A stretch of DNA of 41,788 nucleotides from Alphaproteobacteria bacterium (GTDB lineage: Bacteria; Pseudomonadota; Alphaproteobacteria; Puniceispirillales; UBA1172). Under the pieces are notes generated by a model. That model was not told where the DNA came from and did not search any database. It worked only from the letters and a program-made list of their open reading frames with translations. How positions within the stretch are numbered: position 1 is the first letter of the stretch; each line of letters begins with the position of its first letter. Position numbers and translations under genes: made by a program. Below, one piece after another: positions 5,839-41,760 of this stretch. The stretch lies in NCBI GenBank assembly GCA_011522975.1, contig WTHX01000063.1, forward strand, positions 1 to 41,788, in the 5' to 3' direction.

Positions 5839-5851
5839 TGAAGGTCTGATC

Positions 5852-7301: not shown

Positions 7302-7359
7302 AACGAAACATGAAGGGGGCCCCTACGGACTGACCCCAATAGAATTAGAGGATAATGTT

Positions 7360-10759: not shown

Positions 10760-10778
10760 ACAATAAAGGAAGAAGAAT

Positions 10779-18383: not shown

Positions 18384-18389
18384 TTTACA

Positions 18390-20445: not shown

Positions 20446-20465
20446 GGCGGTGGATACTGGTTATC

Positions 20466-21420: not shown

Positions 21421-22611
21421 TTATTCAGCGGCGACTTTCATCGGCTGCTTATTGGCTGTGTAGAAATCAACCGCAGCACCAACGCCAGCACCTGATGTAA
21501 ACGGAATGCCGACATTGCGCATTGCCATTTCAACACCCCCCAATGCTTGTAGCACCATGATTTCATTGAGCCAGCCCAAATGACCAATGCGGAAGACTTT
21601 ACCGTTTAGAATGCTAAGCCCACCGCCTAAAGAGACATTATATTGATGATAGGCCGTTTTAATCACGTCATTGGCGTCAAAACCGTCACCGACTTTAATC
21701 GCGGTGACTGTATCTGAATGCCATTGTGGGTCTTGGCAACAATTAGTCAGCCCCCAAGCCGATACCGCCTGACGAACACCTTCTGCCAAATGGTTGTGGC
21801 GGGCGGCGATATTATCCATGCCTTCATCAAGCAGCATATCGATCGATTTTCTAAGCCCGCGCAGCAATGTTGCGGCTGGCGTATAAGGGAAATACCCTGT
21901 GGCATTGGCTTTGATCATGTCTTCAAAGCTGAAGAAACACACAGGCAAATCAGACGTATTGCGCTTGGCCAAGGCTTTCTGGCTGACCCCAACAATGGCC
22001 AAGCCTGTTGGCATCATAAAGCCTTTTTGCGACCCGGCAACGGCGATATCAATACCCCAGTCTTCCATGCGAAACTCAAGCGAACCCACAGAACTGACGC
22101 CATCAACAAACAATAGGGCAGGGTGACCAAGGTCATCCAGCATATCGCGGACGGCTTTAATATCGCTGGTCACACCAGTTGCGGTTTCATTATGGCAAAC
22201 CAAGACGGCTTTGATGGCGTGGGTTTTATCCGCTTCAAGAGCGGCGCGGTATTCAGCCATAGGCACGCCGCGGCCCCATTCAACTTCCACGTTATGGACA
22301 TCAAGACCAAAACGTTGGCACATATCAACCCACAACCATGAGAATTGACCAAATGATGAGCTCAGGACTTTGTCGCCTGCGTTTAATGTATTGGCGATGG
22401 CTGACTCCCATCCGCCTGTACCTGAGCCAGGGAAAATAAAGACTTGGCCAGTTTCGGTGCGGAAGACTTTTTTCAGGTCCGCCAATAATGGCATGGTAAA
22501 TTCTGGAAAATCTGGGGCGCGATGATCTTCAAGCGGCACTTCCATGGCTTGACGAATTTCAAACGGCATATTCGTTGGGCCAGGAACGGCGAGACATTTA
22601 AATCCAGTCAT
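21421..22611 (-). CDS. sgaA: Serine--glyoxylate aminotransferase (class V PLP aminotransferase)
   Basis: Long colinear similarity to Methylobacterium SgaA as I recall it: VPGPTN, FPGSGTGGWESA, GDKVL...FGQFS.LW.DM.QR.GLDV, KAV.V.HNETATGVTS, GHPALLFVDGVSS.GSL, AGSQKG (PLP Lys), GYFPYTP, VFRIGH.G. I prefer ATG 22611 (GGAG 6 nt upstream). The alternative is 22623. Confidence 0.85.
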   Translation of the reverse strand: MTGFKCLAVPGPTNMPFEIRQAMEVPLEDHRAPDFPEFTMPLLADLKKVFRTETGQVFIFPGSGTGGWESAIANTLNAGDKVLSSSFGQFSWLWVDMCQRFGLDVHNVEVEWGRGVPMAEYRAALEADKTHAIKAVLVCHNETATGVTSDIKAVRDMLDDLGHPALLFVDGVSSVGSLEFRMEDWGIDIAVAGSQKGFMMPTGLAIVGVSQKALAKRNTSDLPVCFFSFEDMIKANATGYFPYTPAATLLRGLRKSIDMLLDEGMDNIAARHNHLAEGVRQAVSAWGLTNCCQDPQWHSDTVTAIKVGDGFDANDVIKTAYHQYNVSLGGGLSILNGKVFRIGHLGWLNEIMVLQALGGVEMAMRNVGIPFTSGAGVGAAVDFYTANKQPMKVAAE

Positions 22612-22711
22612 AACATTCTCCATTTCAATATCTTAAAATGTTCTAAAGGGAATTGGACATTGGCAGGAAAAAACAAACAGAACACGTAAATTAATGTAAA
22701 TGTGTTTAAAG

Positions 22712-22829: not shown

Positions 22830-24278
22830 ATGAAGTCTTTTGCTGGAAAACCAAACACGGGCAAGGCCTATACAGGCAAAACATTTGTTGGGCCTCGATT
22901 GCGGCAACTCAGGCGAGACCATGGTCATACCCAAGCGGATATGGCCAGCAGACTGGGGGTCAGCGCCGCTTATATCAATTTGATGGAACATAATCAGCGC
23001 AGCCTATCGGTGCGCGTTTTGGTGGGCTTGCTTGAATCCTATGGCGTCGATTGGCAGGATTTGGTCAATGATGTTGATGACAAGACCTTTGATGATTTGC
23101 GCCAAGCGATGAAAGACCCGTTCTTTGGTGAAGGCCAATTGGACCCGCGGGAAATGCGGTCGGCGATTGATAACGCCCCTAATTTGGTGGAATATTTTCT
23201 GAAAATGCACGGCGAATACCGCAATCTTTTGGAAAATGTCATGCGGATTGGCAATGAACGGATGCCCGATGAATTGCTGGCATCCTCACCTGAAACCGTG
23301 GTGCATGATTTTTTCCGCAACAATTCCAATTATTTCCCCGGGCTTGAACAAGCCGCCAGCCAATTGCGCAGCGCGTTAAAAAAAGAAAGCGACATGACCT
23401 ATATGGCTTTGCGCCAACGCTTGCAGAAAAAGCATGGTATTGATGTGGTCATCACAGCGGTTGAAGACATGGGGGAGGCGTTAAGGGTCTATGATGAAGA
23501 CCAGAAAACCATCCAATTGTCTGAAGGGCTCGACCATATCAACAAAGTCTTTCAATTGGCCCATGTCAGTTGTTTTCTTGAATTTACTGAAGTTTTAGAG
23601 AGCATCACCGACCGCCTGTCAGACCCACGAGATGGCGTGGTGAAACGCTGTCAGGTGGAATTGGCCAATTATTTTTCAGCCGCCCTTTTGATGCCCTATG
23701 ATGATTTCGTCAAAATGGCGAAAGAAACACGCTATGATATCGACCGGCTTGCGGCACGGTTTGAAGTGTCGTTTGAACAGGTCTGCCACCGCCTGACGAC
23801 CTTGCAGAAAGATGGCAATAAAGGCGTGCCGTTTTTCTTCTTGCGGGTGGATAAAGCCGGCAATGTTTCAAAACGCTTTAATGCCACGTCTTTCCAGATT
23901 GCTGAATTTGGCGGGGCTTGCCCTGTCTGGAATCTGCATACTGCTTTTCGCACCCCCGGGGTTGTGATTCCACAATTTGTTGAATTGCCCGATGGTGAGC
24001 GTTTCTTCACCATCAGCCGCACCACAGAACGCCCCGCCTTTAGCCGCGATACCCAAGACCGGCGGCTGGTGTTATCGCTGGGGTGCAGCGTGACTCATTG
24101 CGATGATGTGATCTATGCCAATGCGTTTAAGATGAAAGATCAGCCTGAATTTTCGCAAATTGGCATCAATTGCCATCTTTGCCCAAGAGAAGCCTGCTCG
24201 CAACGTGCGCATCAGCCATTGATGACAGAATTGACGATTGACCCCAACCGCCGTGGCGGCACCCGATACGATGGGTAG
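22830..24278 (+). CDS. XRE-family regulator with ImmA/IrrE-like (DUF955) and Cys-rich DUF2083 domains (RamB / PrpR / ScfR type)
   Basis: HTH LRQLRRDHGHTQADMASRLGVSAAYINLMEHNQRSLS. Central ELANYFSAALLMPYDDF. C-terminal cysteines GGACPVWNLH, GCSVTHC and INCHLCPREACSQRAH. GGAG lies upstream of the ATG. Confidence 0.75.
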   Translation: MKSFAGKPNTGKAYTGKTFVGPRLRQLRRDHGHTQADMASRLGVSAAYINLMEHNQRSLSVRVLVGLLESYGVDWQDLVNDVDDKTFDDLRQAMKDPFFGEGQLDPREMRSAIDNAPNLVEYFLKMHGEYRNLLENVMRIGNERMPDELLASSPETVVHDFFRNNSNYFPGLEQAASQLRSALKKESDMTYMALRQRLQKKHGIDVVITAVEDMGEALRVYDEDQKTIQLSEGLDHINKVFQLAHVSCFLEFTEVLESITDRLSDPRDGVVKRCQVELANYFSAALLMPYDDFVKMAKETRYDIDRLAARFEVSFEQVCHRLTTLQKDGNKGVPFFFLRVDKAGNVSKRFNATSFQIAEFGGACPVWNLHTAFRTPGVVIPQFVELPDGERFFTISRTTERPAFSRDTQDRRLVLSLGCSVTHCDDVIYANAFKMKDQPEFSQIGINCHLCPREACSQRAHQPLMTELTIDPNRRGGTRYDG

Positions 24279-25498: not shown

Positions 25499-25595
25499 TA
25501 TCTTTGTTTCACTTTTTTCCTCGTTTTACCTCTTTCATTCGCGTAAATATAAATCATCAAGACAACGACCTTAAACTCAAAGAAAGGTGGATGCT

Positions 25596-26660
25596 ATGCG
25601 TATTCTTATTCTCGGGGCTTCTTATGGATCACTCCTATCAACAAAACTGTTGATGGCTGGCCATGATGTGACGTTGATCTGCCGTCAGCAATCGGCTGAC
25701 CTGATCAATAAAGAAGGCACGGAAGTCCGCATTAAATTGCGTGATGAAGACCAGCATCGTTCTTTCTTCTCAAAAGACTTGCCGGGTCATGTTGATGCCG
25801 TCACACCAGAAGCGGCCAAGCCCGAAGATTATGATATGATCGCCCTCGCCATGCAGGAGCCGCAATATTCATCAGGCCCTGTTCGTGACTTGATGCAACG
25901 AATCGCCCATTCAGGCAAGCCTTGTCTTTCGATCATGAATATGCCGCCATTGCCATACCTTAAGCGGATTCCTGCCCTTGCAGAAATGGATTTGGACGCC
26001 TGCTTTGATGATGCCAGTGTCTGGGCTGATTTCGACCCTGATCTGGTAACACTCTGCAGCCCTGATCCGCAAGCCTTCCGCCCACCGGAAGAAGGGTCTA
26101 ATGTTCTGCATGTTGGCCTGCCAACCAATTTCAAAGCGGCCGATTTCGCCCGCCCTGAACATAACGAAATGCTTCAGCAATTGGTTGATGACATTGCCGC
26201 GGTGACAGTCGATGGCAAAGATGTGCCGGTTAAATTGCGCCGCCATGAAAGCCTATTTGTGCCCATGGCAAAATGGAGCATGTTGCTGACCGGCAATTAT
26301 CGCTGTGTCTTGACCAATGGTGAACAGCCGATCCGTGACGCTGTCCATGGTGATCTTAACGCATCAATGGCGATGTATGCTTGGGTTGATCAATTGGCCC
26401 AAACATTGGGGGCTGATCCCGCTGACCAAGTGCCGTTCGAAAAATATGCCAATGCGGCTGAAGGCTTGTTGAAGCCATCATCTGCGGCGCGGGCGATTGC
26501 TGCTGGTGCGACCAAAATTGAACGTGTTGACATGTTGGTGAAGACAATCGGTGCGCAAATGGGCATGCAGAACGACACGGTTGATAATATCGTCTCCCGT
26601 GTTGATGGCCGCTTGATGGCGAATGGTGCCAAGGAAGCTGAACTTGAGCGAGCGGGCTAA
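25596..26660 (+). CDS. Ketopantoate reductase (ApbA/PanE)-like NAD(P)-dependent oxidoreductase, divergent
   Basis: N-terminal Rossmann MRILILGASYGSLLSTKLLMAGHDVTLICR. The central PMAKWSMLLTGNYRCVL resembles the KPR catalytic-Lys helix (K.w.N...N). AAAGGTGG lies 5 nt before ATG 25596. The ORF-track start at 25587 is a GTG. Confidence 0.5.
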   Translation: MRILILGASYGSLLSTKLLMAGHDVTLICRQQSADLINKEGTEVRIKLRDEDQHRSFFSKDLPGHVDAVTPEAAKPEDYDMIALAMQEPQYSSGPVRDLMQRIAHSGKPCLSIMNMPPLPYLKRIPALAEMDLDACFDDASVWADFDPDLVTLCSPDPQAFRPPEEGSNVLHVGLPTNFKAADFARPEHNEMLQQLVDDIAAVTVDGKDVPVKLRRHESLFVPMAKWSMLLTGNYRCVLTNGEQPIRDAVHGDLNASMAMYAWVDQLAQTLGADPADQVPFEKYANAAEGLLKPSSAARAIAAGATKIERVDMLVKTIGAQMGMQNDTVDNIVSRVDGRLMANGAKEAELERAG

Positions 26661-26863: not shown

Positions 26864-27766
26864 TTATGAATCGAGGAGTTTCACCAAAGTTTCACCCAAT
26901 TGCGCTGGTGATGGTGAGACGCTGACGCCCGCTTCTTGCAGCGCGGCGATTTTATCTTCAGCCCCGCCTTTACCGCCAGAGATCACCGCGCCAGCATGGC
27001 CCATGGTGCGTCCCGGCGGTGAGGTGCGGCCAGCGATAAAGCCAACGGTTGGTTTGGAACGGCCTTTCTTGGCTTCATCGATCAGGAATTGCGCGGCTTC
27101 TTCTTCGGCAGAACCGCCAATTTCACCAATCATGATGATCGATTGGGTTTCATCATCGCTTAAGAACATATCCAAAACATCGATAAATTCAGTGCCTTTA
27201 ACAGGGTCGCCACCAATCCCAACAGCCGTTGATTGCCCAAGGCCAGCATTGGAAGTCTGGAACACCGCTTCATAGGTCAATGTGCCTGAACGCGACAGAA
27301 CACCGACCGACCCTTTGCGGAAAATGCTGCTCGGCATAATGCCGATTTTGCATTCTTCTGGGGTCAAAAGACCAGGGCAATTCGGGCCGATCAGCCGTGA
27401 AGATGAAGCATCTAGTTTTTCTTTCACCTTAACCATATCTTGGACAGGAACGCCTTCGGTGATGCAGGTGATCAATTCAATGCCTGCGTCAATCGCTTCT
27501 GTAATCGCGGCGGCGGCGCCTGCTGGCGGGACATAAATCACTGAGGCATTCGCCCCTGTTTCGGCTTTGGCTTCGGCGACAGTTGTAAACAGCGGTAGGG
27601 TTGTACCATCCGCCGCTGACCATGTCTCCCCACCCTTTTTGGGATGGGTGCCAGCAACCATTTGCGTGCCATGATAGGCGAGGGCTTGTTCAGTATGGAA
27701 CGTCCCTGTCTTGCCGGTCAGGCCCTGAACAATGATTTTCGTGTCTTTATTGATCAGAATAGACAT
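26864..27766 (-). CDS. sucD: Succinyl-CoA synthetase alpha subunit
   Basis: [28 protein letters not shown] and the phospho-His loop [11 protein letters not shown]. Starts 5 nt after the sucC stop. Confidence 0.93.
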
Positions 27767-27770
27767 GGGC

Positions 27771-28964
27771 TTAACCTTTCACTGCTTTAACGATTTTCTG
27801 GGCGGCGTCATCAAGATCATTGGCGGGGATCAGATTAAGCCCGCTTTCAGCCAGTATCGCTTTGCCTTCTTCAACGCGTGTGCCTTCCAGCCGGACCACC
27901 AATGGCACGGTTAATTGCACGTCTTTTGCCGCTTGCACCACGCCTTCGGCGATGACATCACAGCGCATAATGCCGCCAAAGATATTGACCAAAATCCCTT
28001 TAACATTGTCATCAGCAGTGATGATTTTAAACGCGGCGGTGACTTTTTCAGTCGTCGCCCCGCCACCAACATCAAGGAAATTGGCCGGCTCAGCGCCATA
28101 AAGTTTGATGATATCCATGGTCGCCATGGCCAGACCCGCGCCATTGACCATACAGCCGATCTCACCATCAAGGGCGATATAGGCCAGATCATATTTTGAC
28201 GCTTCGATTTCTTTTTCATCTTCTTCGGTCAGGTCACGCAATTCCATAATATCAGGATGGCGGAACAGCGCATTGCCATCAAAAGAGACTTTCGCGTCCA
28301 GCACCTGAACATCATTTGATGTGGTGACGATCAGGGGGTTGATCTCAAGAAGGCTCATGTCTTTTTCAGTAAAAGCGGTGTAAAGCGTCTTGAACAAAGC
28401 CATGCCTTGGTCGCGGGCGCTGCCATCAAGGGCCAGCGCATCGGCAAGGGCGGCGGCGTCTTGATCGGTGCAGCCTGTTGAGGCGGTGATCCCAATAGTG
28501 GTGATCTTTTCAGGCGTGTCATGGGCAACGGTTTCAATATCCATGCCGCCTTCGGTTGAAACCACAAAAGACACTTTGCCTGTTTCGCGGTCGACAAGAA
28601 TCGAAAGATATAACTCGCGGTCAATATCCGCGCCATCTTCGATATAAAGACGGTTCACTTGCTTGCCGCTTTCGCCGGTCTGATTGGTGACCAGCGTTTT
28701 GCCAAACATTTCATGAATATTGGCCAAGGCTTCCTCGCGGGAAAACGAAACCCGCACGCCGCCTTTGGCATCGTCGCCGAGTTCTTTAAATTTGCCTTTG
28801 CCGCGGCCACCTGCGTGGATTTGGCTTTTCACCACCCAAACAGGCCCCGGCAGTGCATCGACTGCTGCTTCGGCTTGATCTAATGACGTCAAGGCAACGC
28901 CATTGGCCACAGGCGCCCCAAATCCCTTAAGAACTTGTTTGGCCTGATATTCATGAATATTCAT
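27771..28964 (-). CDS. sucC: Succinyl-CoA synthetase beta subunit (ADP-forming)
   Basis: [95 protein letters not shown]. Nearly colinear with alphaproteobacterial SucC. AGGAGG SD. Confidence 0.93.
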
Positions 28965-29352: not shown

Positions 29353-30102
29353 TTGGTTGATGTCGACCTAAAACCTGTGGTCATCAATTTCACCTTGAAG
29401 GACCATATTTACGAAGTGCTGAGGGATAGTATCCAAGCGCTTGATATTTATGATGCTGAACAAGACCTGCGCCTTGATGAACGCAAATTGGCCGAACAAC
29501 TTGGCATCTCCCGCACCCCAATCCGTGAAGCCTTGGCGCGACTGGCGCAGGATGGATTGGTTGAGATTCTGCCGCGTAAAGGGGTGTTCATTCACCGCAA
29601 ATCCCTCAAAGAAATTCTTGAAATGGTGGTCACTTGGGCGGCGCTTGAATCGATGGCGGCGCATATGGCGTCACGGCTTGCCAGTGATGCTGACCTGAAA
29701 GCCTTGCGCAAATTTGCCATGGCCCATAGTGAAACAGCCTCTAAAGCAGAATTGAGCGAATATTCGGATGCGAATATCAAATTCCACCAGTTTATTTTGG
29801 AATTATCAGGTTGCGATATGCTGAAGAATATCGCCGATGATCTGTTTATGCATATGAACGCGGTTCGGCGCAGGGCTTTGGGTGAAAACAACCGTGTTAG
29901 CCGATCTGTTGCGGACCATATGGAAATTATTGAGGCGCTGGAAGCCCGCGATTCAGAACTGGCATCACGGCTTGTCCGTGAGCATACCATGCGATTGCAT
30001 GACCATATTAAAGACCGGTGGACAAGGCTTGAAAATCTCGCCACCCAGAAAAAAACAACTGACGATTTGGCTATAGTTACAAAGCCTAGGAGGGGATCAT
30101 GA
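29353..30102 (+). CDS. GntR-family transcriptional regulator (FadR/FCD subfamily)
   Basis: w[43 protein letters not shown] plus an all-helical FCD-like C-terminal domain. Apparent TTG start (no in-frame ATG until residue about 90) with GGGGGCG 5 nt upstream. The stop overlaps the oxc start (ATGA, 30099-30102). Confidence 0.85.
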
Positions 30103-31838
30103 GCCCAAGTGAAGACACATCAACGGATACACAGTCACTAACCGATGGGTTTCATCTTGTCATTGATGCATTAAAAACCAATGGCATTGACACGATTTAT
30201 GGTGTTCCCGGCATTCCGATCACGGATTTAGGCCGTTTTGCTCAAGGCGCGGGCATGCGGGTTTTGTCTTTCCGCCATGAACAGCACGCCGGTTATGCCG
30301 CATCTATTGCGGGGTATTTAACCAAAAAACCTGGCGTTTGTTTGACGGTTTCAGCCCCAGGGTTTTTGAACGGCCTGACGGCTTTGGCCAATGCCACCAC
30401 CAATTGCTTCCCCATGATCTTGATCAGCGGGTCTTCCGAACGTGAGATCGTTGACCTGCAGCAAGGTGATTATGAGGAAATGGATCAATTGGCTATTGCC
30501 AAGCCGCTATGTAAGGCGGCTTATCGTATCCTCCATGCCCAAGATATTGGCATCGGCGTCGCACGGGCCATCCGTGCGGCGGTTTCTGGCCGCCCCGGCG
30601 GTGTATATTTGGATTTGCCGGCCTCGCTTCTGGGTCAGGTGATGGATGAAATGGAAGGGCAGAAATCAATCGTCAAAGTGATTGACCCGGCCCCTAGGAT
30701 GATCCCTGCACCGGATGCGGTGGATCGTGCCATTGATGTGTTGAAAAATGCGGAACGGCCGTTGATTATTTTGGGCAAAGGCGCGGCCTATGCCCAAGAA
30801 GATGAAACCGTTAAAGCCTTTGTTGAAAAATCAGGCGTGCCGTATTTGCCGATGAGCATGGCGAAAGGTCTGTTGCCAGATACTCACCCGCAATCTGCCG
30901 GCGCGGCACGATCGCTGGTCCTGAAAGAGGCGGATGTGGTGATGATGGTGGGGGCGCGGCTCAATTGGTTGTTATCCCACGGTAAGGGCAAGGCTTGGGG
31001 CGCGCCTCATAGCAAGAAATTCATTCAAGTTGATATTGAAGCCATGGAAATGGACAGCAATGTTGAGATTGCAGCGCCATTGGTGGGTGATATCGGGTCA
31101 TGCCTGTCTGCTATGCTGGATCGCATGGGTGACGATTGGGCAAAACCGCCGCAAGCATGGACTGATGCTATTGATGAGAAGAAAAACACCAATCTTGAAA
31201 AAATGGCAGGTCGCCTGAAAAGCAACGCCAACCCGATGGATTACCATGGGGCTTTGGGCGCGTTGCGTGAGGTGATCAAAGACAATCAAGATGTGATTTT
31301 GGTCAATGAAGGCGCCAATACTTTGGATTTCGCCCGCAGCATTATCGATATCTACAAACCTCGCCACCGGATTGATGTTGGCACTTGGGGGATTATGGGT
31401 ATCGGTCAGGGGGCTTCTGTTGCCGCCGCTGTTGAAACCGGTCAGCAGGTTCTCGCCATTGAAGGCGATAGCGCTTTTGGTTTCTCTGGCATGGAGATCG
31501 AAACCATCTGCCGCTATAACCTGCCGGTCTGTATTGTGGTGTTTAACAACAATGGGATTTATCGCGGCACGGATCAAAACCCAAGTGGCGGTGATGATGT
31601 CGCCACCACGGTATTTGTTAAAAATTCCCGGTATGACCTGATGATGCAGGCCTTTGGGGGGGAGGGCGTCACCGCCACTAACCCTGATGAATTAAGCCAG
31701 ATGGTACGGGATGCTATCGCATCAGGAAAACCGACATTGGTCAACGCGGTGATCGATGAAGCCGCCGGCACGGAAAGTGGCCGGATTGGTAATCTAAACC
31801 CGCAAAGTGTTGTTTCTAAAAACAAAGCAAGTCAATAA
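30099..31838 (+). CDS. oxc: Oxalyl-CoA decarboxylase (ThDP-dependent)
   Basis: Colinear with E. coli/O. formigenes Oxc as I recall them: TDG.H...[145 protein letters not shown]. Confidence 0.95.
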
Positions 31839-31849: not shown

Positions 31850-33121
31850 ATGAGTCAAATGAAAGCGCTTGAAGGTATTAAAATTTTAGACTTTACCCAT
31901 GTTCAATCAGGGCCAACCTGCACCCAGTTGCTGGCATGGTTTGGTGCTGATGTGATCAAGGTTGAACGCCCCGGAGTGGGGGATGCCACCCGCAAACAAT
32001 TGGTGGATGTGCCTGGGGCGGACAGCCTTTATTTTACCATGCTCAATCACAACAAACGGTCGATGGAACTCAATTCCAAGAATGAAACCGGTAAGGCTGT
32101 GCTGACACGGATGATTGAAGAATGTGATGTGCTGGTGGAAAACTTTGCCCCCGGGGCTTTGGATCGTATGGGCTTTTCATGGGAACGCATTCAAGAGATA
32201 AACCCGCGGATGATCATGGCATCGATCAAAGGCTTTGGTCCGGGCAAATATCAGGACTGTAAAGTTTATGAAAATGTCGCGCAATGTGCAGGTGGGTCTG
32301 CCTCAACAACAGGGTTTTTGGATGGCCCGCCTTTGGTGACTGGCGCGCAAATTGGAGATTCAGGCACAGGTCTGCATCTTTGCCTTGGGATTGTCACCGC
32401 TTTGTTCCAGCGTGAAAAGACTGGCCGTGGCCAGAAGGTCAGCGCGGCGATGCAGGATGCAGTGTTGAATTTGGCGCGGGTTAAGATGCGCGATCAACAG
32501 CGTCTTGATGCAGGACCATTGAAAGAATATTCGCAATTTGGTGAAGGCATTCCTTTCAGTGATGCCACCCCACGTGCGGGCAATGATTCAGGTGGCGGTC
32601 AGCCTGGCCGTATCTTGAAATGTAAGGGCTGGGAAACTGACCCGAATGCCTATACTTATTTCATTATTCAGGCGGCAGTCTGGGAAAAGGTCTGTGATGT
32701 CATTGGCGAGCCTGACTGGAAAACAGCCGAAGGCTATGCCAGTCCGCCAGAACGTCTCGATAAACTCAATCAGATTTTTGAGCGCATCGAAGAATGGACC
32801 ATGACCAAAACCAAATTTGAAGTCATGGATGCGTGTAACCCGCTTGATATTCCTGTTGGGCCTATCTTGTCGATGAAAGAGATCGCCGAAGATGATGGTC
32901 TCTATGCGACGGGCACAATGGTCAAAGTCGATCACCCTGAGCGCGGCGAATATCTGTCTGTGGGCTGCCCGATTAAATTCTCTGACATGGAAGTGGCGGT
33001 GGAACGCTCACCATTATTGGGAGAGCACACATCTGAAATCTTAAGCCAGGTTCTGGGTTATTCCGAAGATGAAATTAAAGAGATTGCCGCATCAGGTGCG
33101 GTGGGTGAATTGAAGGCGTAA
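31850..33121 (+). CDS. frc: Formyl-CoA:oxalate CoA-transferase (family III CoA-transferase)
   Basis: [131 protein letters not shown]. Colinear with E. coli YfdW/Frc. The start may be ATG 31859 (AGGA 9 nt upstream) rather than 31850. Confidence 0.95.
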
Positions 33122-33132: not shown

Positions 33133-34047
33133 ATGCGCATCGTATTACATGGACAACAAGCCTTTGGCAAAGCGGTCTTAGAACGCTTGCTTGAGCGGGG
33201 TGAAGATGTCGTGGCGGTATGCTGCGCCCCCACTAAAGAAGGCAAGCCTGAAGACCCATTGGCGGAATTGGCGCGGGAAAAAGGCTTGCCTTTGCATCAG
33301 CCGGCATCATGGAAAACACCCGAAGCCCTTGAATTGATGCAGTCATTTAATGCGGATGTCTGCATGATGGCCTATGTCTTGTTATTTGTGCCAGAGGCGG
33401 TGCGTGATGCGCCGACCTATGGGACGTTCCAATATCACCCCTCGCTTTGCCCGCAACACAGGGGGCCATCGTCGATCAACTGGCCGATTGCCATGGGCAA
33501 GAAACACACAGGGCTGACAATTTTCTGGCCAGATGATGGTCTGGATGAAGGCCCGATTATGCTTCAGAAAACCTGCCCGATTGGCCCTGATGAAACCTTG
33601 GGGGATATTTATTTCAATAAACTGTTCCCCATGGGTGTTGATGCCATGATCGAAGGCCTTGATATGGTCAAGGCTGGGGTCATTATCAAACATGATCAGC
33701 GGCTGGACGATGGCACTTATGAAGGCTGGTTCAATAAAGACGCCGCCGCCATTGATTGGTCAAAGCCTGTTGAAGAAACCTATAACACTATTCGCGCGGC
33801 CAACCCTGCCCCTGGGGCATGGACCACGCTTGATGGTGAGGAAGTTAAAATTTACGATTCCGCCCGCATCGACGGTGATGGCACCCCTGGTGAGGTCATT
33901 GACGTCTCCGATGATGGCGTGGTCGTGCAAGGAAATGGCGGCAGAATTGTCTTAAAAAGAGTACGACCTGCCGCAAGTGGAAAAATTGCGGCCAGCGAAT
34001 GGGCGCAAACTGCAAATCTCAAATCTGGATCTAAACTAGGAACATAA
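33133..34047 (+). CDS. Stand-alone formyltransferase/hydrolase resembling the N-terminal domain of 10-formyl-THF dehydrogenase (Fmt-like fold)
   Basis: [17 protein letters not shown] (FDH: YHPSLLPRHRGASAINW), [16 protein letters not shown] (FDH: FWADDGLDTGDLLLQK), GTYEGW, IDWSKP, PAPGAWT. These fit FDH-N better than Met-tRNA formyltransferase (VHGSLLPRWRGAAPIQ). Comparison made from memory. 304 aa, with no ACT, carrier or ALDH domain. Confidence 0.7.
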
Positions 34048-34049: not shown

Positions 34050-35726
34050 ATGAGTTTCAAATCTGACATCGAAATCGCCCGCGAAGCGAATAAAAAACCC
34101 ATTCAGGAGATCGGCGCAAAGCTTGATATTCCGTATGAAGACCTGCTGCCTTTCGGCCATGATAAAGCCAAGGTTTCAGAAAACTTCATCAAAGCACAGG
34201 CTGGCAAGGAAGATGGTAAACTTATCCTTGTGACCGCCATCAACCCAACCCCTGCAGGGGAAGGTAAGACCACCACAACTGTTGGTCTGGGTGACGGTCT
34301 GAACCGCATTGGCAAAAAAGCCGCGATTTGTATTCGTGAAGCATCGCTTGGCCCATGCTTCGGGATGAAGGGCGGGGCCGCAGGCGGTGGTTACGCCCAG
34401 GTCGTGCCTATGGAAGATATGAACCTGCATTTCACAGGTGATTTCCACGCCATTACATCGGCCCATAACCTGTTGGCGGCGATGGTTGATAACCACATCT
34501 ATTGGGGCAATGAGCAAGAAATTGATATTCGCCGCATCGCTTATCGCCGTGTTATGGATATGAACGACCGTGCCCTGCGCCAGATCGTATGTAACCTTGG
34601 CGGTGTTGCCAATGGCTTCCCAAGAGAAGCCGGGTTCGACATCACCGTAGCATCAGAAGTCATGGCTATTCTTTGTTTGGCGACTGATCTGGCTGATCTG
34701 GAAAAGCGTTTGGGCGATATTATCGTTGCCTATCGCCGTGACCGCAGCCCTGTTTATTGCCGTGACATCAAAGCGGATGGCGCAATGACCGTATTGTTGC
34801 AACAGGCGATGCAGCCAAATTTGGTGCAAACATTGGAAAACAACCCTGCCTTTGTTCATGGCGGTCCATTTGCCAATATCGCCCATGGCTGTAATTCGGT
34901 TGTCGCGACAACAACAGCGTTGAAATTGGCTGATTATGTTGTGACCGAAGCAGGTTTCGGGGCTGACCTTGGGGCTGAAAAGTTCATGAACATCAAATGC
35001 CGCAAAGCAGGGCTTAAGCCTGATGCGGTGGTAATTGTTGCTACCGTCCGCGCTATGAAGATGAATGGCGGTGTCGCCAAGGCTGATCTGGGCGCAGAAA
35101 ATGTTGATGCTGTCATCAATGGCTGTCCAAACCTCGGCCGTCATATGGAAAACATCAAGAAATTTGGTGTCCCTGCGGTGGTGGCGATCAACCATTTTGT
35201 CACTGATACCGATGCTGAAGTTGAAGCGCTGATGAATTACGTCAAAGAACAAGGCGGTGAAGCGGTTCTATCAAAGCATTGGGCCATGGGCAGCGAAGGC
35301 ATTCAGCCATTGGCCGAAAAAGTTGTTGAGGTGATCGAAAGCACCCCATCAAACTTTGCCCCGCTTTACCCAAGCGAAATGCCATTGTTTGAAAAAATCG
35401 AAACCATTGCCAAAGAAATCTACCGTGCTGATGAAGTGATTGCTGATCAAAAAATCCGTGATCAACTGCGCCAGTGGGAAGACCAAGGTTATGGTGATTT
35501 GCCTGTTTGTATGGCGAAGACACAATACAGTTTCACCACCGACCCAAATCGCCGTGGTGCGCCTGTTGGCCATAGTCTGCCAGTGCGTGAAGTTCGTCTT
35601 TCCGCGGGGGCTGGTTTTATCGTGGTGATCTGCGGTGAAATTATGACCATGCCTGGTCTGCCAAAAGTGCCTTCTGCTGAATCAATTCACATCAATGATG
35701 ATGGGATGATCGAAGGCCTATTCTAA
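34050..35726 (+). CDS. fhs: Formate--tetrahydrofolate ligase
   Basis: [27 protein letters not shown]-loop, [28 protein letters not shown], 558 aa. Starts 3 nt after the upstream stop. Confidence 0.95.
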
Positions 35727-35735: not shown

Positions 35736-36593
35736 ATGATGCAAAAGATTCTGGTGCCTGTTCGTGGCGATGGTAAAGGCGATAATGTCTTTGCTCATGC
35801 GGTTGCCTTGGCACGTCGGTCTGGTGCTCATATCCAAGTTACACATTGCCGCTCACGCCCTGAGGATATGATCCCTTATGGCGTGGCGGTTTCCCCTGTT
35901 TTAAAAGAGCAGATTATTGAACAATCTGTGAACCTCCTCAACAAACAAGAACAGGGGCTACGCGAAGAAATTCTTGCACTTGCCCAAGCCAATGGGGCGA
36001 TTTTGGCTGAGCCGTCTGATGATGATCATGTCACGGTTTCATTTATTGAAGAAGAAGGCCGCCAAATCGAAGTGATCCGTCACCATGGGCTGTTGTCTGA
36101 TATAACGGCTGTCGCCCAGCCTGATCTGGATCGTAATATCGGCACCAATACGTTGCAGGCGGCGCTGTTTAGCACCGGTCGCCCTGTCATGATGTGCCCA
36201 GAGGCCAAATCAAAAATTCCTGAAAATCTGGGGCAAAATATTGCCCTTGCTTGGGATGGTTCTGTTGAATCGTCTCGTGCGGTGATGCAAACATTAAGTT
36301 TGCTGAAATCAGCAGAACAGGTTACGATTATAACCAATACGACCGATACTATCAAAGTATCACCAGAAGAATTATCAGAGTTTTTGGCCATGCATGGTGT
36401 TCAAGCCAATATTGCAATTATCAGTAAATCATCAAATGTCAGCCGGTCAATTTTGGATCAAGCCGCTGCTATCGGTGCTGATATGTTGGTCTTGGGGGCT
36501 TATGGCAACAGTAAGAATTTAGAGCGGGTTGCAGGTGGGGTGACACAAGATGTTATCGATCATGCAACACTGCCCGTAGTTTTCGTCAACTGA
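35736..36593 (+). CDS. Tandem universal stress protein (UspA-family, two domains)
   Basis: ILVPVRGDG... N-terminal domain. The C-terminal domain ends with the USP ATP-binding-like LVLGAYGNSKNLERVAGGVTQDVIDHATLPVVFV. 9-nt gap after fhs. Confidence 0.8.
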   Translation: MMQKILVPVRGDGKGDNVFAHAVALARRSGAHIQVTHCRSRPEDMIPYGVAVSPVLKEQIIEQSVNLLNKQEQGLREEILALAQANGAILAEPSDDDHVTVSFIEEEGRQIEVIRHHGLLSDITAVAQPDLDRNIGTNTLQAALFSTGRPVMMCPEAKSKIPENLGQNIALAWDGSVESSRAVMQTLSLLKSAEQVTIITNTTDTIKVSPEELSEFLAMHGVQANIAIISKSSNVSRSILDQAAAIGADMLVLGAYGNSKNLERVAGGVTQDVIDHATLPVVFVN

Positions 36594-36820: not shown

Positions 36821-37807
36821 ATGAATATGTTCAAATCAATGGCTATGGGTGTAGCCGGTATCGCTATGGCAACAGCAATGACTGTTGGTGTGGCGCAAGC
36901 AGATGGCCATGGATGGAAGCCAACCAAGCCGGTTGATTTCATCATTATGGCTGGTAAAGGCGGCGGTGCTGATAAAATGGCACGTCTTATGCAGTCGATT
37001 GTTGAAAAAGAAAATCTGTCCAATCGCCCGTTGGTGCCAACCAACAAATCAGGGGGGTCAGGTGCTGAAGCCTTGATCGCAGCGAAAGGGGCAAATGACC
37101 CAGATCACACCATTATGGTGACGCTGAATTCATTCTTCACAACACCGTTGCGTCAGCCAGGTATCGATGTTGATATCATGCAATTCGCGCCAGTTGGCCG
37201 TATGGCGGAAGACACCTTCCTGCTTTGGGTTCATAAAGATGAAGGCGTCAGCACTTTTGAGGAGTTTTTGGCAAAGGCCAAAGCCGATGGCAATAAGTGG
37301 GTCATGGGCGGTACAGGTAAGAACTCAGAAGATAACATTATCACGGACTACCTGAACAACAATTATGGTCTTGATATCAAGTACATTCCGTACAAGGGCG
37401 GCGGCGCTGTCGCGAAAGACCTTGCTGGTAAGCAGATCAGATCTTCGGTGAACAACCCTTCAGAAGCCCTTGGTTTCTATGAATCAGGTGATGTTATCGC
37501 GCTGGTGGCCTTTACGGATGAGCGTCTGCCGATGTTCCCAGATGTCCCAACCCTGAAAGAAAAGGGCGGTGACTTCAGCTACTTCATGCAGCGTGCGGTT
37601 GTAGGTGCGCCAGGCATGTCTGATGCTGCATTGGCTTATTACACTGACCTGTTTACCAAAGTGTACAATTCAGACGATTGGCAGAGCTATAAGTCGAAGA
37701 AGTCACTGATGGGTGATTTCTTGGCTGGTCAAGGGCTGCGTGATTACTGGACAACTCAGCGTGATCGTCATGAAACGATCTTGCGGGCTTCAGGCGCAAT
37801 TAAATAA
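36821..37807 (+). CDS. tctC: Tripartite tricarboxylate transporter (TTT) substrate-binding protein, TctC/Bug family
   Basis: Signal peptide ending AQA, KPVDFIIMAGKGGGADKMAR, NKSGGSG, YKGGG and size of about 328 aa are TctC-family features. GGAGGAG SD. Confidence 0.85.
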   Translation: MNMFKSMAMGVAGIAMATAMTVGVAQADGHGWKPTKPVDFIIMAGKGGGADKMARLMQSIVEKENLSNRPLVPTNKSGGSGAEALIAAKGANDPDHTIMVTLNSFFTTPLRQPGIDVDIMQFAPVGRMAEDTFLLWVHKDEGVSTFEEFLAKAKADGNKWVMGGTGKNSEDNIITDYLNNNYGLDIKYIPYKGGGAVAKDLAGKQIRSSVNNPSEALGFYESGDVIALVAFTDERLPMFPDVPTLKEKGGDFSYFMQRAVVGAPGMSDAALAYYTDLFTKVYNSDDWQSYKSKKSLMGDFLAGQGLRDYWTTQRDRHETILRASGAIK

Positions 37808-37838
37808 CAGAAAAAAATAGACGGGGGGGATTAACAAC

Positions 37839-38369
37839 ATGCGTCGTGCAGAAATTGTAACAGCAGTTTTATTGGGGATTTTCTCCGTCTATTTAATGTG
37901 GAAAAGCGGTGAGCCACCGTCATGGAACCCTGACGTGCCTCGATTTGCCAATATTGGCATGATCGAAGGTGAAGGCCCAGGCAGCGGATTTTGGCCATTC
38001 TGGCTATCAGCAGTGATGTTGATCTGTTGCATCTGGATCGGGGTGAATTGGTACAAACGGAAATCACCACCATCTCAATCTGAGGAGCCCTTTTTAGACA
38101 GTTACGGCAAGCGGATTTTACTGCTTGTTGGCGCTGGGCTCCTTGGGTTTCTGATCTTAATTCATATCATTGGATTCTATGGCGCCATGTTGGTCTTCAT
38201 GTTCTATTACATGCGCTTTTTAGGCCGTCACAGTTGGGCGCTGACATCCGCTGTTGGCGTTGGCCTTGTGGTCTTTAGTTTCTTTTTCTTTGACATCGCC
38301 ATGCGGATTGTTTTGCCCAAAGGGTATTTAGAACCTTTGTTCATTCCGCTTTATGACATTTTTCTATAA
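37839..38369 (+). CDS. tctB: TTT small membrane subunit TctB
   Basis: About 175 aa, four hydrophobic helices, GPGSGFWPFWL motif, and position between tctC and tctA. Confidence 0.8.
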   Translation: MRRAEIVTAVLLGIFSVYLMWKSGEPPSWNPDVPRFANIGMIEGEGPGSGFWPFWLSAVMLICCIWIGVNWYKRKSPPSQSEEPFLDSYGKRILLLVGAGLLGFLILIHIIGFYGAMLVFMFYYMRFLGRHSWALTSAVGVGLVVFSFFFFDIAMRIVLPKGYLEPLFIPLYDIFL

Positions 38370-38391
38370 GCACGATTGGGGGGATTAAATC

Positions 38392-39921
38392 ATGGATATT
38401 ATCGTCGCATTATTTAACGGAATTCTGATCGCGCTTGAGCCTATTAACCTTGGGCTTGCGGTAATCGGCGTTATTGTCGGTCTGTTTGTTGGCGCAATGC
38501 CAGGGTTGGGATCTGTGAACGGTGTTGCCATCTTATTGCCGTTTACCTTTGTGATTCAAAGTTTCACAGGCGGGGCGACATCACCGATGATCTTCTTGGC
38601 CGCGATTTATTATGGGGCCATGTATGGCGGGGCGATCTCGTCAATCACCTTAGGCATACCCGGGGCATCAACGGCGGTTGCCACAACCTTTGATGGCCGC
38701 CCGCTTGCCATGAAAGGCATGGCTCATATCGCCTTGGTGGCAGCGGCTTTGGCGTCATTCATTGGCGGGACAGTTTCTAATGTCTTGTTCACCGCTTTTG
38801 CACCATTGCTGGCTTCTGTTGCTCTATCATTCGGCAATCCAGAGATTTTTGCCTTGATGCTGCTGGCCTTTGCGACTTTTGTCGGGCTTGGCGGTGATGA
38901 CATTCCGAAGACAATTTTCTCCATCTGTTTCGGCCTTGTTTTGGCGACGGTTGGTTTTGATATTGTCTCTGGTGAACCACGTTTGATCTTCTTTGATATC
39001 ACAGGCTTTACCCATGGTATTCGCTTCCTTGTCTTGGCGATTGGTGTTTACGGGATTGGTGAGATGATCTGGACCATCAACACCTCACGCTATGGCAATT
39101 CCATGTCAAAAGTGGATGTGTCATGGAAAAGCATGGTCGATGCCATGAAGAGTTTCCGTGAGGCATGGCGCGGGACATTGATCGGCTCTTTGCTGGGTTT
39201 CTTTGTCGGGATTCTGCCTGCCGCTGGTGCAACGCCGGGGTCATTGATGTCCTATGGCGTCACCAAGATGTTGTCGAAAAACCCAAAAGAATATGGGGAA
39301 GGCGCGATTGACGGTGTTGCCGCCCCCGAAGCGGCGAATAATTCTGCCTCAACAGGCGCGATGTTGCCGATGATGACTTTGGGGATTCCAGGGTCACCCA
39401 CCACGGCTGTTTTGCTGGCAGGGATGGTGATCTGGGGGCTTCAGCCAGGGCCGTTGCTGTTTAGCGATCAGCCTGAATTTGTTTGGCCATTAATCGGGTC
39501 ATTCTATATTTCAAACCTTGTGGCGGTATTGGTGAATTTGGCCTTTATTCCTGTCTTCCTATGGATGCTGAGGATGCCGTTTACTATTTTGGCACCATTG
39601 ATTTTCGTTCTGTCATTGGTGGGCACTTATGCCGCCTATCTGGATATGTTTGATGTTTGGCTGATGGTGATTGTCGGTGTTGGGGCGTTCTTCTTACGCA
39701 TCCTTGATTACCCTGTGGCACCAGCGGTATTGGCGATTGTATTGGGCCCGATCGCAGAGCCTAAATTGCGCCAATCCTTGTTGCTATCAGATGGTGATTT
39801 TAGCATCTTCTTCACAAGACCGATTGCAGGACCGATCACGGTGATCGCGATTATCCTGATCTTATTGCCGCTGTTAAAGGTGATCCGCGATAAGATTAAG
39901 GGCAAACCTCAAGAGGCATAA
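38392..39921 (+). CDS. tctA: TTT large membrane subunit TctA
   Basis: About 509 aa polytopic protein. GAMPGLGSVNGVAILLPFTF, GGAISSITLGIPG, ILPAAGATPGSLMSYG and APEAANNSASTGAMLPMMTLGIPGS are TctA hallmarks. Confidence 0.9.
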   Translation: MDIIVALFNGILIALEPINLGLAVIGVIVGLFVGAMPGLGSVNGVAILLPFTFVIQSFTGGATSPMIFLAAIYYGAMYGGAISSITLGIPGASTAVATTFDGRPLAMKGMAHIALVAAALASFIGGTVSNVLFTAFAPLLASVALSFGNPEIFALMLLAFATFVGLGGDDIPKTIFSICFGLVLATVGFDIVSGEPRLIFFDITGFTHGIRFLVLAIGVYGIGEMIWTINTSRYGNSMSKVDVSWKSMVDAMKSFREAWRGTLIGSLLGFFVGILPAAGATPGSLMSYGVTKMLSKNPKEYGEGAIDGVAAPEAANNSASTGAMLPMMTLGIPGSPTTAVLLAGMVIWGLQPGPLLFSDQPEFVWPLIGSFYISNLVAVLVNLAFIPVFLWMLRMPFTILAPLIFVLSLVGTYAAYLDMFDVWLMVIVGVGAFFLRILDYPVAPAVLAIVLGPIAEPKLRQSLLLSDGDFSIFFTRPIAGPITVIAIILILLPLLKVIRDKIKGKPQEA

Positions 39922-39924
39922 ATG

Positions 39925-39950
39925 AAATCGGGGCTTCGGCCCCGATTTTT
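39925..39950 (+). terminator. Rho-independent terminator immediately after tctA
   Basis: AAATCGGGGC-TTCG-GCCCCGATTT followed by TT. 10-bp stem with a UUCG tetraloop. It lies inside the ORF-track N-terminal extension of the next ORF. Confidence 0.8.
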
Positions 39951-39963
39951 AATAAGGGTGCAA

Positions 39964-41760
39964 ATGACCCCCGATAAAGACCTTAAAAAAGCAACAGTTA
40001 ACAACAAGCATGATGCTTGGAATCCTGGTCTTGAATCAATAATACCGCCGCATCTTAACAACCTCATTACATTGTTCAACGAGGGCAATGCTTTTGCATC
40101 TTATCAAAACACCCAAGAGGCTGTGCATTTAACAGGTCTTTCCATGGCACGGCTGGCGGATTTGAATTTTGAGCGCATGGCGGTGCATGAATTGCTGATC
40201 AGGGTGACGGCAGAATTATCCGTCCCCGATGGCCCTAGCTATGAATATTTGGGGCTGCAACTGCGCGGCATGGTTGAAACCATCCACCAGCAATATCTGA
40301 AACCTGAATTGTCGGCTCTTAATCAAGCCTATGATGGGTTCAGGGCAGATGCCAAAAAAAATCTGTTATCAATTCTTGCCGGCGAAATTCAAGCCAATCC
40401 CAATCAAGATGCAAAACAAAACAAAGGCTGGCTTGGCTGGCTGAAACCTAAGAAGGCAGAGAAAAGGACGGCATCTACCCTGTCGCGTGATCAGGCTGAC
40501 CTGAATAAAATACAAGACTGGACGAATGCCGCCCATGGGGAATCTGACCCAAACCGATCAGCGCAATTGGCGGCATTGGCCGAAATAGGCCGCGGCATCC
40601 TAGGCCAAAGAGGGCGCTTGTCGCCCGACCATGATTTAATGGCAGATTTAGCCTTGCGGCTTTATTGCCAAGATTACGGCACACTGGAAGTCAGGCGGCT
40701 GGTCGCGCCTATATTTGATAAGGCAGTAGCGGCAGAAGGCTATCGAGTCTTGCCGAACCAAACAAAACGCATTGTGATGAACACCAAAGGCGCATCTGCC
40801 GCCGGCAAAAGCACCATCCGCCCCCATCAACGAAAATTGGCCAAACGGTTGGGCATCCCTTGGAAAGACTTTGCCTTGATCAGTCCTGATTATTGGCGGA
40901 AATACCTGATTGATTATGATGGTTTGGGGGATGATTACAAATATGCCGCCATGTTAACAGGCATGGAATTGGCGGTCATTGACCAGAAACTTGACCGCCT
41001 GATGGCTGAAAAAGCCAAGCGCAATGATATGCCCCATATGTTGATTGACCGCTTCCGTTTTGACAGTTTTATGGTCAGTGATGACGGTGAATATGAAAGC
41101 CGATTGCTGACAAGATTTGGCGATATGGTCTATTTGTTTTTTGTTGTGACCCCGCCACATGAAACGGTGGAACGGGCGTGGCAGCGCGGCTTGACAACAC
41201 AACGTTATAAAGCGGTTGATGATCTGCTTTACCATAATATCGAAGCCTATAAAGGCATGCCTGAATTGTTTTTTTCATGGACTGCCGTGGGCAATAAAAC
41301 CGTTCATTATGAATTCTTAGATAACGACGTCCCCCTTGGTGAAGACCCCCGTACCATCGCTTTTGGAGAAAACGCCGCCATGACGATTCTTGACCCCAAA
41401 GCCATGGATAAGATTGATCGGTTTCGCCATGTCAATATTCACGCCAAGAGGGCGGATGATGTTTTGGAAGAAACCCCCGATCATGATTACGGATTTTTGC
41501 GCCAATGCATCACCATGATGGCGTCGATTACTTGGGCTGATCACGCCACAGGATCAGTCTGGGGGGAGATGAAAAACAGCAAATGGCAAACCACAGACAG
41601 TGATGTTTTGCCCGATGGCTTGAACGATGATCTGGCCAATGATCAGGCCTTTCAAAATGCGTTGAATTGGCCGCTGGACCAAGGCTTGCCAAAACCTGAA
41701 CATCAAATCAATTTGACCGAAGAAAAATTAAAAACAATTGGGCGTTGGGCGGATCAATAA
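39964..41760 (+). CDS. Large hypothetical protein with a central/C-terminal zeta-toxin-like P-loop kinase domain
   Basis: Walker A MNTKGASAAGKST, downstream hydrophobic-Asp strand MLIDRFRFD, and VVTPPHETVERAWQRG, reminiscent of the zeta-toxin/AAA_33 phosphotransferase fold. The N-terminal region of about 270 aa has no motif I recognise. I start it at ATG 39964 (AAGGGTG upstream), which places the terminator hairpin outside the CDS. Confidence 0.6.
   Translation: MTPDKDLKKATVNNKHDAWNPGLESIIPPHLNNLITLFNEGNAFASYQNTQEAVHLTGLSMARLADLNFERMAVHELLIRVTAELSVPDGPSYEYLGLQLRGMVETIHQQYLKPELSALNQAYDGFRADAKKNLLSILAGEIQANPNQDAKQNKGWLGWLKPKKAEKRTASTLSRDQADLNKIQDWTNAAHGESDPNRSAQLAALAEIGRGILGQRGRLSPDHDLMADLALRLYCQDYGTLEVRRLVAPIFDKAVAAEGYRVLPNQTKRIVMNTKGASAAGKSTIRPHQRKLAKRLGIPWKDFALISPDYWRKYLIDYDGLGDDYKYAAMLTGMELAVIDQKLDRLMAEKAKRNDMPHMLIDRFRFDSFMVSDDGEYESRLLTRFGDMVYLFFVVTPPHETVERAWQRGLTTQRYKAVDDLLYHNIEAYKGMPELFFSWTAVGNKTVHYEFLDNDVPLGEDPRTIAFGENAAMTILDPKAMDKIDRFRHVNIHAKRADDVLEETPDHDYGFLRQCITMMASITWADHATGSVWGEMKNSKWQTTDSDVLPDGLNDDLANDQAFQNALNWPLDQGLPKPEHQINLTEEKLKTIGRWADQ

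Follow-up and report, generated by a model that had tools for sequence, protein, structure and literature searches.

In positions 1-41,788 of contig WTHX01000063.1 of an alphaproteobacterium of the order Puniceispirillales (assembly GCA_011522975.1; this whole stretch is called the window here), an open reading frame (ORF) at 33133-34047 on the forward strand encodes a stand-alone formyltransferase of 304 residues with an ATG start, named FT in the following. The FT gene is part of an oxalate operon and is genomically coupled, in an arrangement conserved in numerous bacteria from sea and soil, to the enzymes that produce or use formyl-CoA. The protein is homologous to the N-terminal domain of 10-formyltetrahydrofolate dehydrogenase (FDH). 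Because an FDH-type domain without the catalytic asparagine is located right after frc and co-occurs with whichever thiamine diphosphate (ThDP) enzyme makes formyl-CoA, FT is read most simply as a candidate formyl-CoA:tetrahydrofolate (THF) N10-formyltransferase. The chances that FT is such an enzyme, working reversibly, are judged to be about even, and the proposed core activity is drawn from the synteny and from the thiol chemistry of FDH and HypX.

The operon has the order GntR-oxc-frc-FT-fhs-usp-tctCBA, all on the forward strand. The genes for oxalyl-CoA decarboxylase, which makes formyl-CoA (oxc, 30099-31838), formyl-CoA:oxalate CoA-transferase (frc, 31850-33121) and formate-tetrahydrofolate ligase (fhs, 34050-35726) each exceed their NCBIfam equivalog cut-offs, with 996 bits for TIGR03254 (cut-off 739), 698.6 bits for TIGR03253 (cut-off 504.2) and 938 bits for PRK13505 (cut-off 652), respectively. 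The gap between the frc stop and the FT start is 11 nt, an AGGGGA Shine-Dalgarno sequence lies 6 nt ahead of the FT ATG, and 2 nt separate the end of FT from the fhs ATG. FT has a dN/dS of about 0.05 against its orthologues and is a genuine gene under constraint. Contigs from seawater metatranscriptomes, in which contaminating DNA is possible, span each of the oxc-frc, frc-FT and FT-fhs junctions, and the operon is transcribed in situ in seawater across these gene junctions. A search with Rfam gave no riboswitch or other RNA element inside the operon, the sole match in the window being a cobalamin riboswitch far upstream.

The gene neighborhood was followed in a scan of one genome per species, in which ORFs were called and labelled by the authors. 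This yielded 80 FT loci with 49-87% identity, 73 of which were scorable. The loci span Puniceispirillales, Rhodobacterales, Hyphomicrobiales (including Methylobacterium), Rhodospirillales and several Gammaproteobacteria, and further ones were found in Ca. Entotheonella, Binatia, Methylomirabilota, Longimicrobiales and Dehalococcoidia/Chloroflexota. A frc gene of at least 60% identity is located directly upstream of FT on the same strand in 50 of the 73 scorable loci, and fhs directly downstream in 35. Preceding frc, a true oxc is present in 24 of the 50 frc-FT loci, and 15 carry a different ThDP enzyme with 25-28% identity to Oxc. The best solved relative of the latter is the actinobacterial 2-hydroxyacyl-CoA lyase (HACL) 7pt3 with 268 bits, compared with 163 bits for the E. 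coli-type Oxc 2q27. The frc of these HACL-like operons is still 69-86% identical to that of the window, and in two Dehalococcoidia contigs the HACL-like gene, FT and a CaiB-type CoA-transferase are grouped together. As the frc-FT pair is kept with either Oxc or the HACL-like enzyme, their common denominator is formyl-CoA. The genes for a tripartite carboxylate transporter, tctCBA, are linked to the operon in many loci, upstream or downstream, and their position varies while the frc-FT pairing does not. Close relatives on Puniceispirillales-type contigs (85-88% identity) have kept the whole island, including formate dehydrogenase, the PanE-like and sucCD-like genes, GntR, oxc-frc-FT-fhs, usp, tctCBA and a 612-residue protein. 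Each of the 120 FT matches listed has an identity of at least 85%, and their sources are collections of metagenomes and genomes (ENA, JGI, NCBI and Logan). The swap of oxc for a HACL-like ThDP enzyme, seen in about one fifth of the related operons (L010:3033-4775, L036:4732-6495, L064:4885-6624 and some 17 more, at position -2 relative to FT), is an observation in its own right; the enzyme could represent a form of oxalyl-CoA decarboxylase that has gone unrecognised, or it could be a lyase acting on a different 2-hydroxyacyl-CoA.

FT is a member of the formyltransferase superfamily (PF00551 and PF02911) with a Rossmann-type N-domain and an OB-like C-domain. Pfam assigns Formyl_trans_N to residues 2-160 (90.6 bits, 1.4e-25) and Formyl_trans_C to residues 202-293 (70.9 bits, 1.1e-19), both above cut-offs; no ACT, carrier (PP-binding), Aldedh or ECH domain was found by Pfam, and the protein stops at residue 304. 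In a phmmer search against the Protein Data Bank (PDB) sequences, the best matches were the FDH N-domains of zebrafish, rat and human (4qpd, 1s3i and 2bw0) with E-values of 9e-56 to 4e-52 and 181-192 bits, followed by the methionyl-tRNA formyltransferase Fmt (1fmt, 6e-40, 141 bits), ArnA (about 1e-26) and HypX (1e-12). The NCBIfam equivalog for Fmt, TIGR00460, reached 137.9 bits, which is under its cut-off of 201.5, and among the NCBIfam matches at E ≤ 1e-5 there was no PurU model and only PurN (3e-10). A sequence-only reading of the window had described a 304-residue protein between frc and fhs with two catalytic motifs, lacking ACT, carrier and aldehyde dehydrogenase domains and closer to FDH than to Fmt or PurU. 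All of this is borne out by the ORF, the Pfam and NCBIfam assignments of FT and its neighbors, and the bit scores. The survey of synteny with oxalate genes that it had proposed gave the frc-FT pairing described above, in several orders and phyla.

The stretch H102-P-S-L-C-P-Q-H-R-G111 together with D138 corresponds to the signature of the superfamily (HxSLLPxxxG plus the catalytic Asp). Taking the residue roles from work on FDH (PMC4388273), H102, S104 and D138 of FT are equivalent to H106, S108 and D142 of FDH and are conserved in 100% of 55 frc-linked homologues. The same applies to Y196 (Y200 in FDH), and F85, the counterpart of the pterin-stacking F89, is conserved in 91%. The position of the catalytic Asn of Fmt and GART, two residues before the His, is occupied by Gln100 in FT and by Gln or Cys in its homologues, Cys being confined to one clade. 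Among others, P112, P118, P133, F161, R276 and K284 are conserved only in the FT family. A search of 1.84 billion cluster representatives gave 577 sequences at E ≤ 1e-30. Within this set the stand-alone prokaryotic proteins of about 300 residues have the signature [IF]-[QC]-[YF]-H-P-S-L-L-P, compared with I-N-V-H-[AG]-S-L-L-P in Fmt-type sequences and I-[ICS]-Y-H-P in eukaryotic FDH. In a neighbor-joining tree, which is a rough, midpoint-rooted distance tree without support values, the Fmt-type (N-x-H) sequences form a separate group and the N-domains of eukaryotic FDH fall among the stand-alone proteins of bacteria. The FT family is acidic, with a pI of 5.4 and an N-domain charge of -9.6, whereas Fmt-type proteins have a pI of 7.1 and a C-domain charge of +2.1, values that serve as an indirect proxy for a tRNA-binding surface. 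A loop typical of Fmt is about 5 residues shorter in the FT family (16 versus 20.6 residues). In a search for domain fusions that might serve as a Rosetta stone, the longer representatives (P0142, P0228, P0123, P0168, P0179 and others) showed no additional Pfam domain and appear to be products of frameshifts or faulty assembly; Aldedh occurred only in the eukaryote-type P0215.

An AlphaFold (AF2) model of FT, built on an alignment of 14 sequences, has a pLDDT of 94.3. Foldseek ranked FDH N-domains first by E-value with a probability of 1.0, and FDH showed 34% identity and a TM-score of 0.88. The structure comparison was considered as a means to discriminate FDH-like from Fmt-like proteins and was rejected, both groups giving TM-scores of 0.88-0.93.

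The chemistry of the related enzymes offers a precedent for transfer to a thiol. The "hydrolase" reaction of the FDH N-domain requires millimolar beta-mercaptoethanol, a thiol attack on the formyl group has been proposed for it, and in the full enzyme this part may fall to the 4'-phosphopantetheine thiol on the carrier domain (PMC4388273). In addition, Ile104 of FDH sits where amine-directed formyltransferases need Asn, and its replacement by Asn (I104N) leaves less than 10% of the activity (PMC4388273). For the N-domain of HypX, crystal structures without a direct assay led to the proposal that the formyl group is transferred from N10-formyl-THF to CoA, giving formyl-CoA (PMC6802093). Apart from this proposed reaction, none making formyl-CoA from N10-formyl-THF and CoA was found in the literature searched. 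By analogy, FT would be a thiol-directed, folate-dependent formyltransferase with free CoA as its thiol partner, catalyzing a reaction near equilibrium, formyl-CoA + THF <-> 10-formyl-THF + CoA, by means of His102, Ser104 and Asp138. The CoA substrate, the reversibility and the physiological direction are what we infer from these comparisons. Formyl-CoA as a new donor or acceptor had already been suggested in the sequence-only reading; the synteny and the precedents of FDH and HypX, which it did not cite, lend that suggestion partial support.

Such an activity would close a triangle. Frc joins formyl-CoA and formate while converting oxalate to oxalyl-CoA, Fhs joins formate and 10-formyl-THF at the expense of ATP to ADP, and FT would join 10-formyl-THF and formyl-CoA. 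Within the triangle Fhs and FT together would thus equal a reversible, ADP-forming formyl-CoA synthetase. Most likely it would be used to prime the autocatalytic Oxc/Frc cycle and to replenish it; the need of priming has been recognised in the case of E. coli YfdE (PMC3720670). The net reaction would be oxalate + ATP + CoA -> oxalyl-CoA + ADP + Pi, in which formate and THF would serve as catalysts. The cycle loses one thioester for each oxalyl-CoA reduced to glyoxylate, and refilling would be needed whenever oxalyl-CoA is drawn off for glyoxylate and serine-cycle assimilation or the labile formyl-CoA is lost. With formyl-CoA in excess, FT would instead move the C1 unit into the folate pool.

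The latter direction had been put forward in the sequence-only reading as a bypass of the ATP cost of Fhs, an account that is incomplete. Once formyl-CoA is withdrawn from the Oxc/Frc cycle, the thioester for activating the next oxalate is gone, and this activation has to be paid for elsewhere; ATP would be saved only if oxalyl-CoA arises by oxidation of glyoxylate. The opposite direction, from formate and ATP via Fhs and then FT to formyl-CoA, fits the oxalyl-CoA-reductase-like and serine-cycle genes of the island at least as well. A further proposal is that Fhs and FT run backwards, with formate kept low by formate dehydrogenase, so that formyl-CoA + THF would give 10-formyl-THF, and 10-formyl-THF + ADP + Pi would give formate + ATP. 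The formyl-CoA thioester would then be conserved as ATP, and in the forward direction formate would be converted to formyl-CoA at a low cost in ATP. This energetic role is regarded as doubtful. If the backward route were true, abundant marine heterotrophs would gain substrate-level phosphorylation from oxalyl-CoA made by glyoxylate or glycolate oxidation. The forward route, if true, could together with the HACL-like enzymes of some operons even support a natural C1 condensation based on formyl-CoA. In the literature searched, the coverage of which is incomplete, neither a free formyl-CoA:THF formyltransferase nor this gene between frc and fhs was found described.

A cultured example of the island was found in the plasmid collection, which contains one true FT orthologue only. 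It is the gene "fmt_2", 49% identical to FT, on pLA6_002 of the marine methylotroph Marinibacterium (Paracoccaceae) sp. La 6. The order on this plasmid is formate dehydrogenase, ppc, sucD_4/sucC_4, GntR, oxc, frc_5, fmt_2, fhs_2, usp, tctCBA, a ScfR-type regulator, a "ketopantoate reductase", glyA2, a class-V aminotransferase and hprA_2. The La 6 "ketopantoate reductase" is 62% identical to the product of window 25587-26660 (+), a PanE/ApbA-like reductase with a weak Pfam ApbA match (23.8 bits) and a candidate oxalyl-CoA reductase of the PanE2 type. PanE2 of M. extorquens is a CoA-acylating glyoxylate dehydrogenase, that is, an oxalyl-CoA reductase, as cited in PMC7486775. The class-V aminotransferase between glyA2 and hprA_2 is 70% identical to window 21421-22623 (-), a serine-glyoxylate aminotransferase-like protein (Pfam Aminotran_5) at the edge of the island. 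Given a PanE2-like reductase and serine-cycle genes beside the operon, the island appears to combine oxalate degradation, reduction of oxalyl-CoA to glyoxylate and assimilation by the serine cycle. With glyA2, the aminotransferase, hprA, ppc and formate dehydrogenase of La 6 taken into account, the reductase would constitute a drain of oxalyl-CoA that needs a net input of thioester. As a side observation, the reductase and aminotransferase around the operon point to serine-cycle assimilation of oxalate in a marine bacterium of the Puniceispirillales type. Strain La 6 is described as possessing PurU and FtfL and can be mutated by allelic exchange (PMC5934484).

Several points weigh against FT as a formyl-CoA:THF formyltransferase that primes the oxalate cycle. 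The formation of formyl-CoA and THF from 10-formyl-THF and CoA has, by our own estimate from textbook values, a free energy change of about +7 kJ/mol, which is close to equilibrium. In some organisms Frc accepts other acyl-CoAs for priming, and the operon has a sucCD-like ligase as its neighbor, so a dedicated priming route is not strictly required. Moreover, 17 scorable loci are without frc, oxc or fhs within 8 kb. The 17-19 non-oxalate homologues share no recurring partner, their neighbors being a 2OG oxygenase, a xanthine-dehydrogenase-like protein, a Dyp peroxidase, FolD (once), AllG, a 2-hydroxyacid dehydrogenase, GNAT, an ABC transporter and defence genes, and in the neighbor-joining tree they are interspersed with the frc-linked ones. 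The FT family may thus have a more general role in folate metabolism, or the partner genes may lie elsewhere in these genomes. The Foldseek TM-scores are 0.88-0.93 for FDH, Fmt and ArnA alike, with 0.69 for HypX. Finally, FT has no identifiable CoA-binding motif, and the basic residues R276 and K284 that are specific to the family are merely suggestive of CoA binding.

Three other functions were weighed on the same evidence. FT could formylate a different acceptor, either an amine (a small metabolite, sugar nucleotide or amino acid) or a thiol or carrier (the phosphopantetheine of an acyl carrier protein or a low-molecular-weight thiol), perhaps in connection with oxalate stress. The superfamily is versatile, with ArnA, sugar N-formyltransferases, Fmt and FDH as members, the two-domain architecture with an OB-like C-domain serves large acceptors in Fmt and ArnA, and the identity of an acceptor is not readable from sequence. 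However, the Asn required by the N-formyltransferases Fmt, ArnA and GART is replaced by Gln or Cys, just as the thiol-directed FDH has Ile, and the conserved neighbors include no carrier-protein, sugar-nucleotide or amine-pathway gene, nor is there an informative domain fusion. Another acceptor is therefore considered unlikely. A slightly less probable function is that of a plain 10-formyl-THF hydrolase analogous to PurU, which would release formate and THF. During growth on oxalate or formate, with Fhs charging the folate pool, the hydrolase would serve as a valve for that pool. The conserved catalytic triad is compatible with hydrolysis, and about one quarter of the homologues lie outside oxalate clusters, one of them beside folD. 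The sequence-only reading had cited the isolated FDH N-domain as a hydrolase, and it is indeed described as such; yet the reaction in vitro relies on added thiol, and the phosphopantetheine thiol is a proposed formyl acceptor. Coupled straight to fhs, a hydrolase would also create an ATP-wasting cycle, and a PurU is already listed in the description of strain La 6 (PMC5934484). Hydrolysis further leaves unexplained why the conserved neighbor is frc rather than fhs (50 versus 35 of 73 loci) and why the pair persists with the HACL-like enzyme. That FT is a second methionyl-tRNA formyltransferase, as its homologues are annotated by JGI, NCBI and Prokka and as the shared two-domain fold (TM 0.88-0.93 to Fmt) might suggest, is highly improbable, because FT fails on the equivalog score (137.9 versus 201.5), on the catalytic Asn and on the proxy of basic surface and loop, because the La 6 copy is labelled "fmt_2" and another gene annotated fmt is thus implied in that genome, and because the conserved context is oxalate catabolism and not def/fmt; the second fmt copy that the sequence-only reading had kept open is unlikely for these reasons.

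The formyl-CoA:THF formyltransferase reading, if true, has consequences for several fields. Apart from its roles as the shuttle of the oxalate cycle, as a product of 2-hydroxyacyl-CoA lyases and as a bound intermediate of HypX, formyl-CoA is hardly known from nature, and no free enzyme linking it to the folate C1 pool was found described in the literature searched. FT would account for the start of the autocatalytic Oxc/Frc cycle and for its upkeep while oxalyl-CoA drains to biosynthesis, and a widespread annotation as methionyl-tRNA formyltransferase in very abundant marine bacteria would be corrected. Pathways based on formyl-CoA are known to be limited by the activation of formate, and FT with Fhs would provide synthetic C1 biology with a natural route from formate to formyl-CoA at the cost of one ATP to ADP. 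The reading would further point to the bacterial family as an evolutionary origin of the N-terminal domain of animal ALDH1L1, of which it would be the free-living relative.

The remaining genes of the operon and island were assigned as follows. The GntR/FCD-family regulator (29353-30102, +; Pfam GntR and FCD) is kept ahead of oxc in most loci. As a separate observation, the GntR/FCD regulator and Oxc form a single ORF of 882 residues in L002:6004-8652 and also in L003, L004 and L005, four contigs from different samples, with a linker of about 70 residues rich in Ser, His, Gln and Glu; the corresponding genes of the window are separate and share just 4 nt (ATGA). It would be unusual for a regulator to be fused to an enzyme in this way. 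Downstream of fhs lies a tandem universal-stress-protein gene (usp, 35736-36593, +; Pfam Usp), which follows fhs in many loci, and then tctC-tctB-tctA (36821-39921, +; Pfam TctC, TctB and TctA), a candidate system for oxalate uptake, the substrate being assigned from context. Behind tctA, a conserved 612-residue protein without assigned function (39922-41760, +) gave no match in Pfam, NCBIfam or the PDB sequences; it has no hydrophobic segments and is soluble, and orthologues with 42-51% identity occupy the same position in L001-L006, L015, L058, L064 and L073. Divergent from the operon, sucD-like and sucC-like genes (26864-28964, -) encode an ADP-forming dicarboxylate-CoA ligase that is 66% identical to the sucC_4/sucD_4 products beside ppc in La 6. 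The window proteins score above the cut-offs of the NCBIfam SucC and SucD models and below that of the malate-CoA ligase model; by sequence, the ligase could be a malate thiokinase, a supplier of CoA esters or a ligase for another dicarboxylate, even oxalate. The La 6 orthologues are the fourth annotated sucCD copy of that strain. The island also has an HTH/Peptidase_M78/ScfR-type regulator assigned by Pfam (22830-24278, +), with orthologues in L002-L005 and 54% identity to the ScfR-type regulator of La 6.

Two features of the window lie apart from the island. The cobalamin riboswitch (RF00174, 97.9 bits, 18378-18609, +) is located downstream of an FrhB/FdhB-like gene (17097-18341) and upstream of an operon for an ABC ATPase, an ABC-3 permease and a ZnuA-like binding protein (18858-21359). 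Positions 1257-11762 are unusually rich in SnoaL-like genes of the polyketide-cyclase fold. Two SnoaL domains are present in several of the five ORFs, and genes for a sugar-type ABC transporter, a protein of the histidinol dehydrogenase family and a LacI regulator are interspersed among them; the region looks like an uncharacterised catabolic cluster.

Of the known systems, FDH (ALDH1L1) is the closest to FT. Its N-domain shares the HP-S-L-x-P-x-x-R-G motif, the His/Ser/Asp triad, the pterin-stacking Phe and the Tyr200 equivalent, and it likewise lacks the catalytic Asn, with Ile104 where FT has Gln (Cys in one clade). In FDH this domain is fused to 4'-phosphopantetheine carrier and aldehyde dehydrogenase domains, whereas FT is free-standing and homologous to the one domain only. 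FT is moreover bacterial and encoded inside an oxalate/formyl-CoA operon, the thiol proposed for it is free CoA, and it would act in both directions. HypX (HoxX; PDB 6j0p etc.), which functions in the formyl-THF-dependent synthesis of CO for [NiFe]-hydrogenase, has the same fold but only about 18-20% identity to FT (E 1e-12, TM 0.69) and Asp80 in place of the triad Ser. HypX binds its CoA as a prosthetic group, mostly through a fused enoyl-CoA-hydratase-like domain, which carries out the decarbonylation of formyl-CoA and is absent from FT, and the context of FT is the catabolic one of oxalate genes and not that of hyp genes. Fmt shares the Formyl_trans_N and Formyl_trans_C architecture with TM-scores of 0.88-0.93, but FT falls short of the equivalog cut-off, has no catalytic Asn and is an acidic protein with the shorter loop. 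PurU would use the same substrate if FT were a hydrolase; it differs by its N-terminal ACT domains, a PurN-like catalytic domain and the lack of Formyl_trans_C, and no PurU model matches FT. The acetyl-CoA:oxalate CoA-transferases of the YfdE/UctC type resemble FT in its proposed role, the provision of a first or replacement CoA thioester for the oxalate cycle. They belong to the unrelated class III CoA-transferase family and take acetyl-CoA as donor, whereas the FT/Fhs route would use formate and ATP. If the proposed activity holds, FT would bring the chemistry of FDH and HypX into a free enzyme that uses free CoA, within central oxalate and C1 metabolism.

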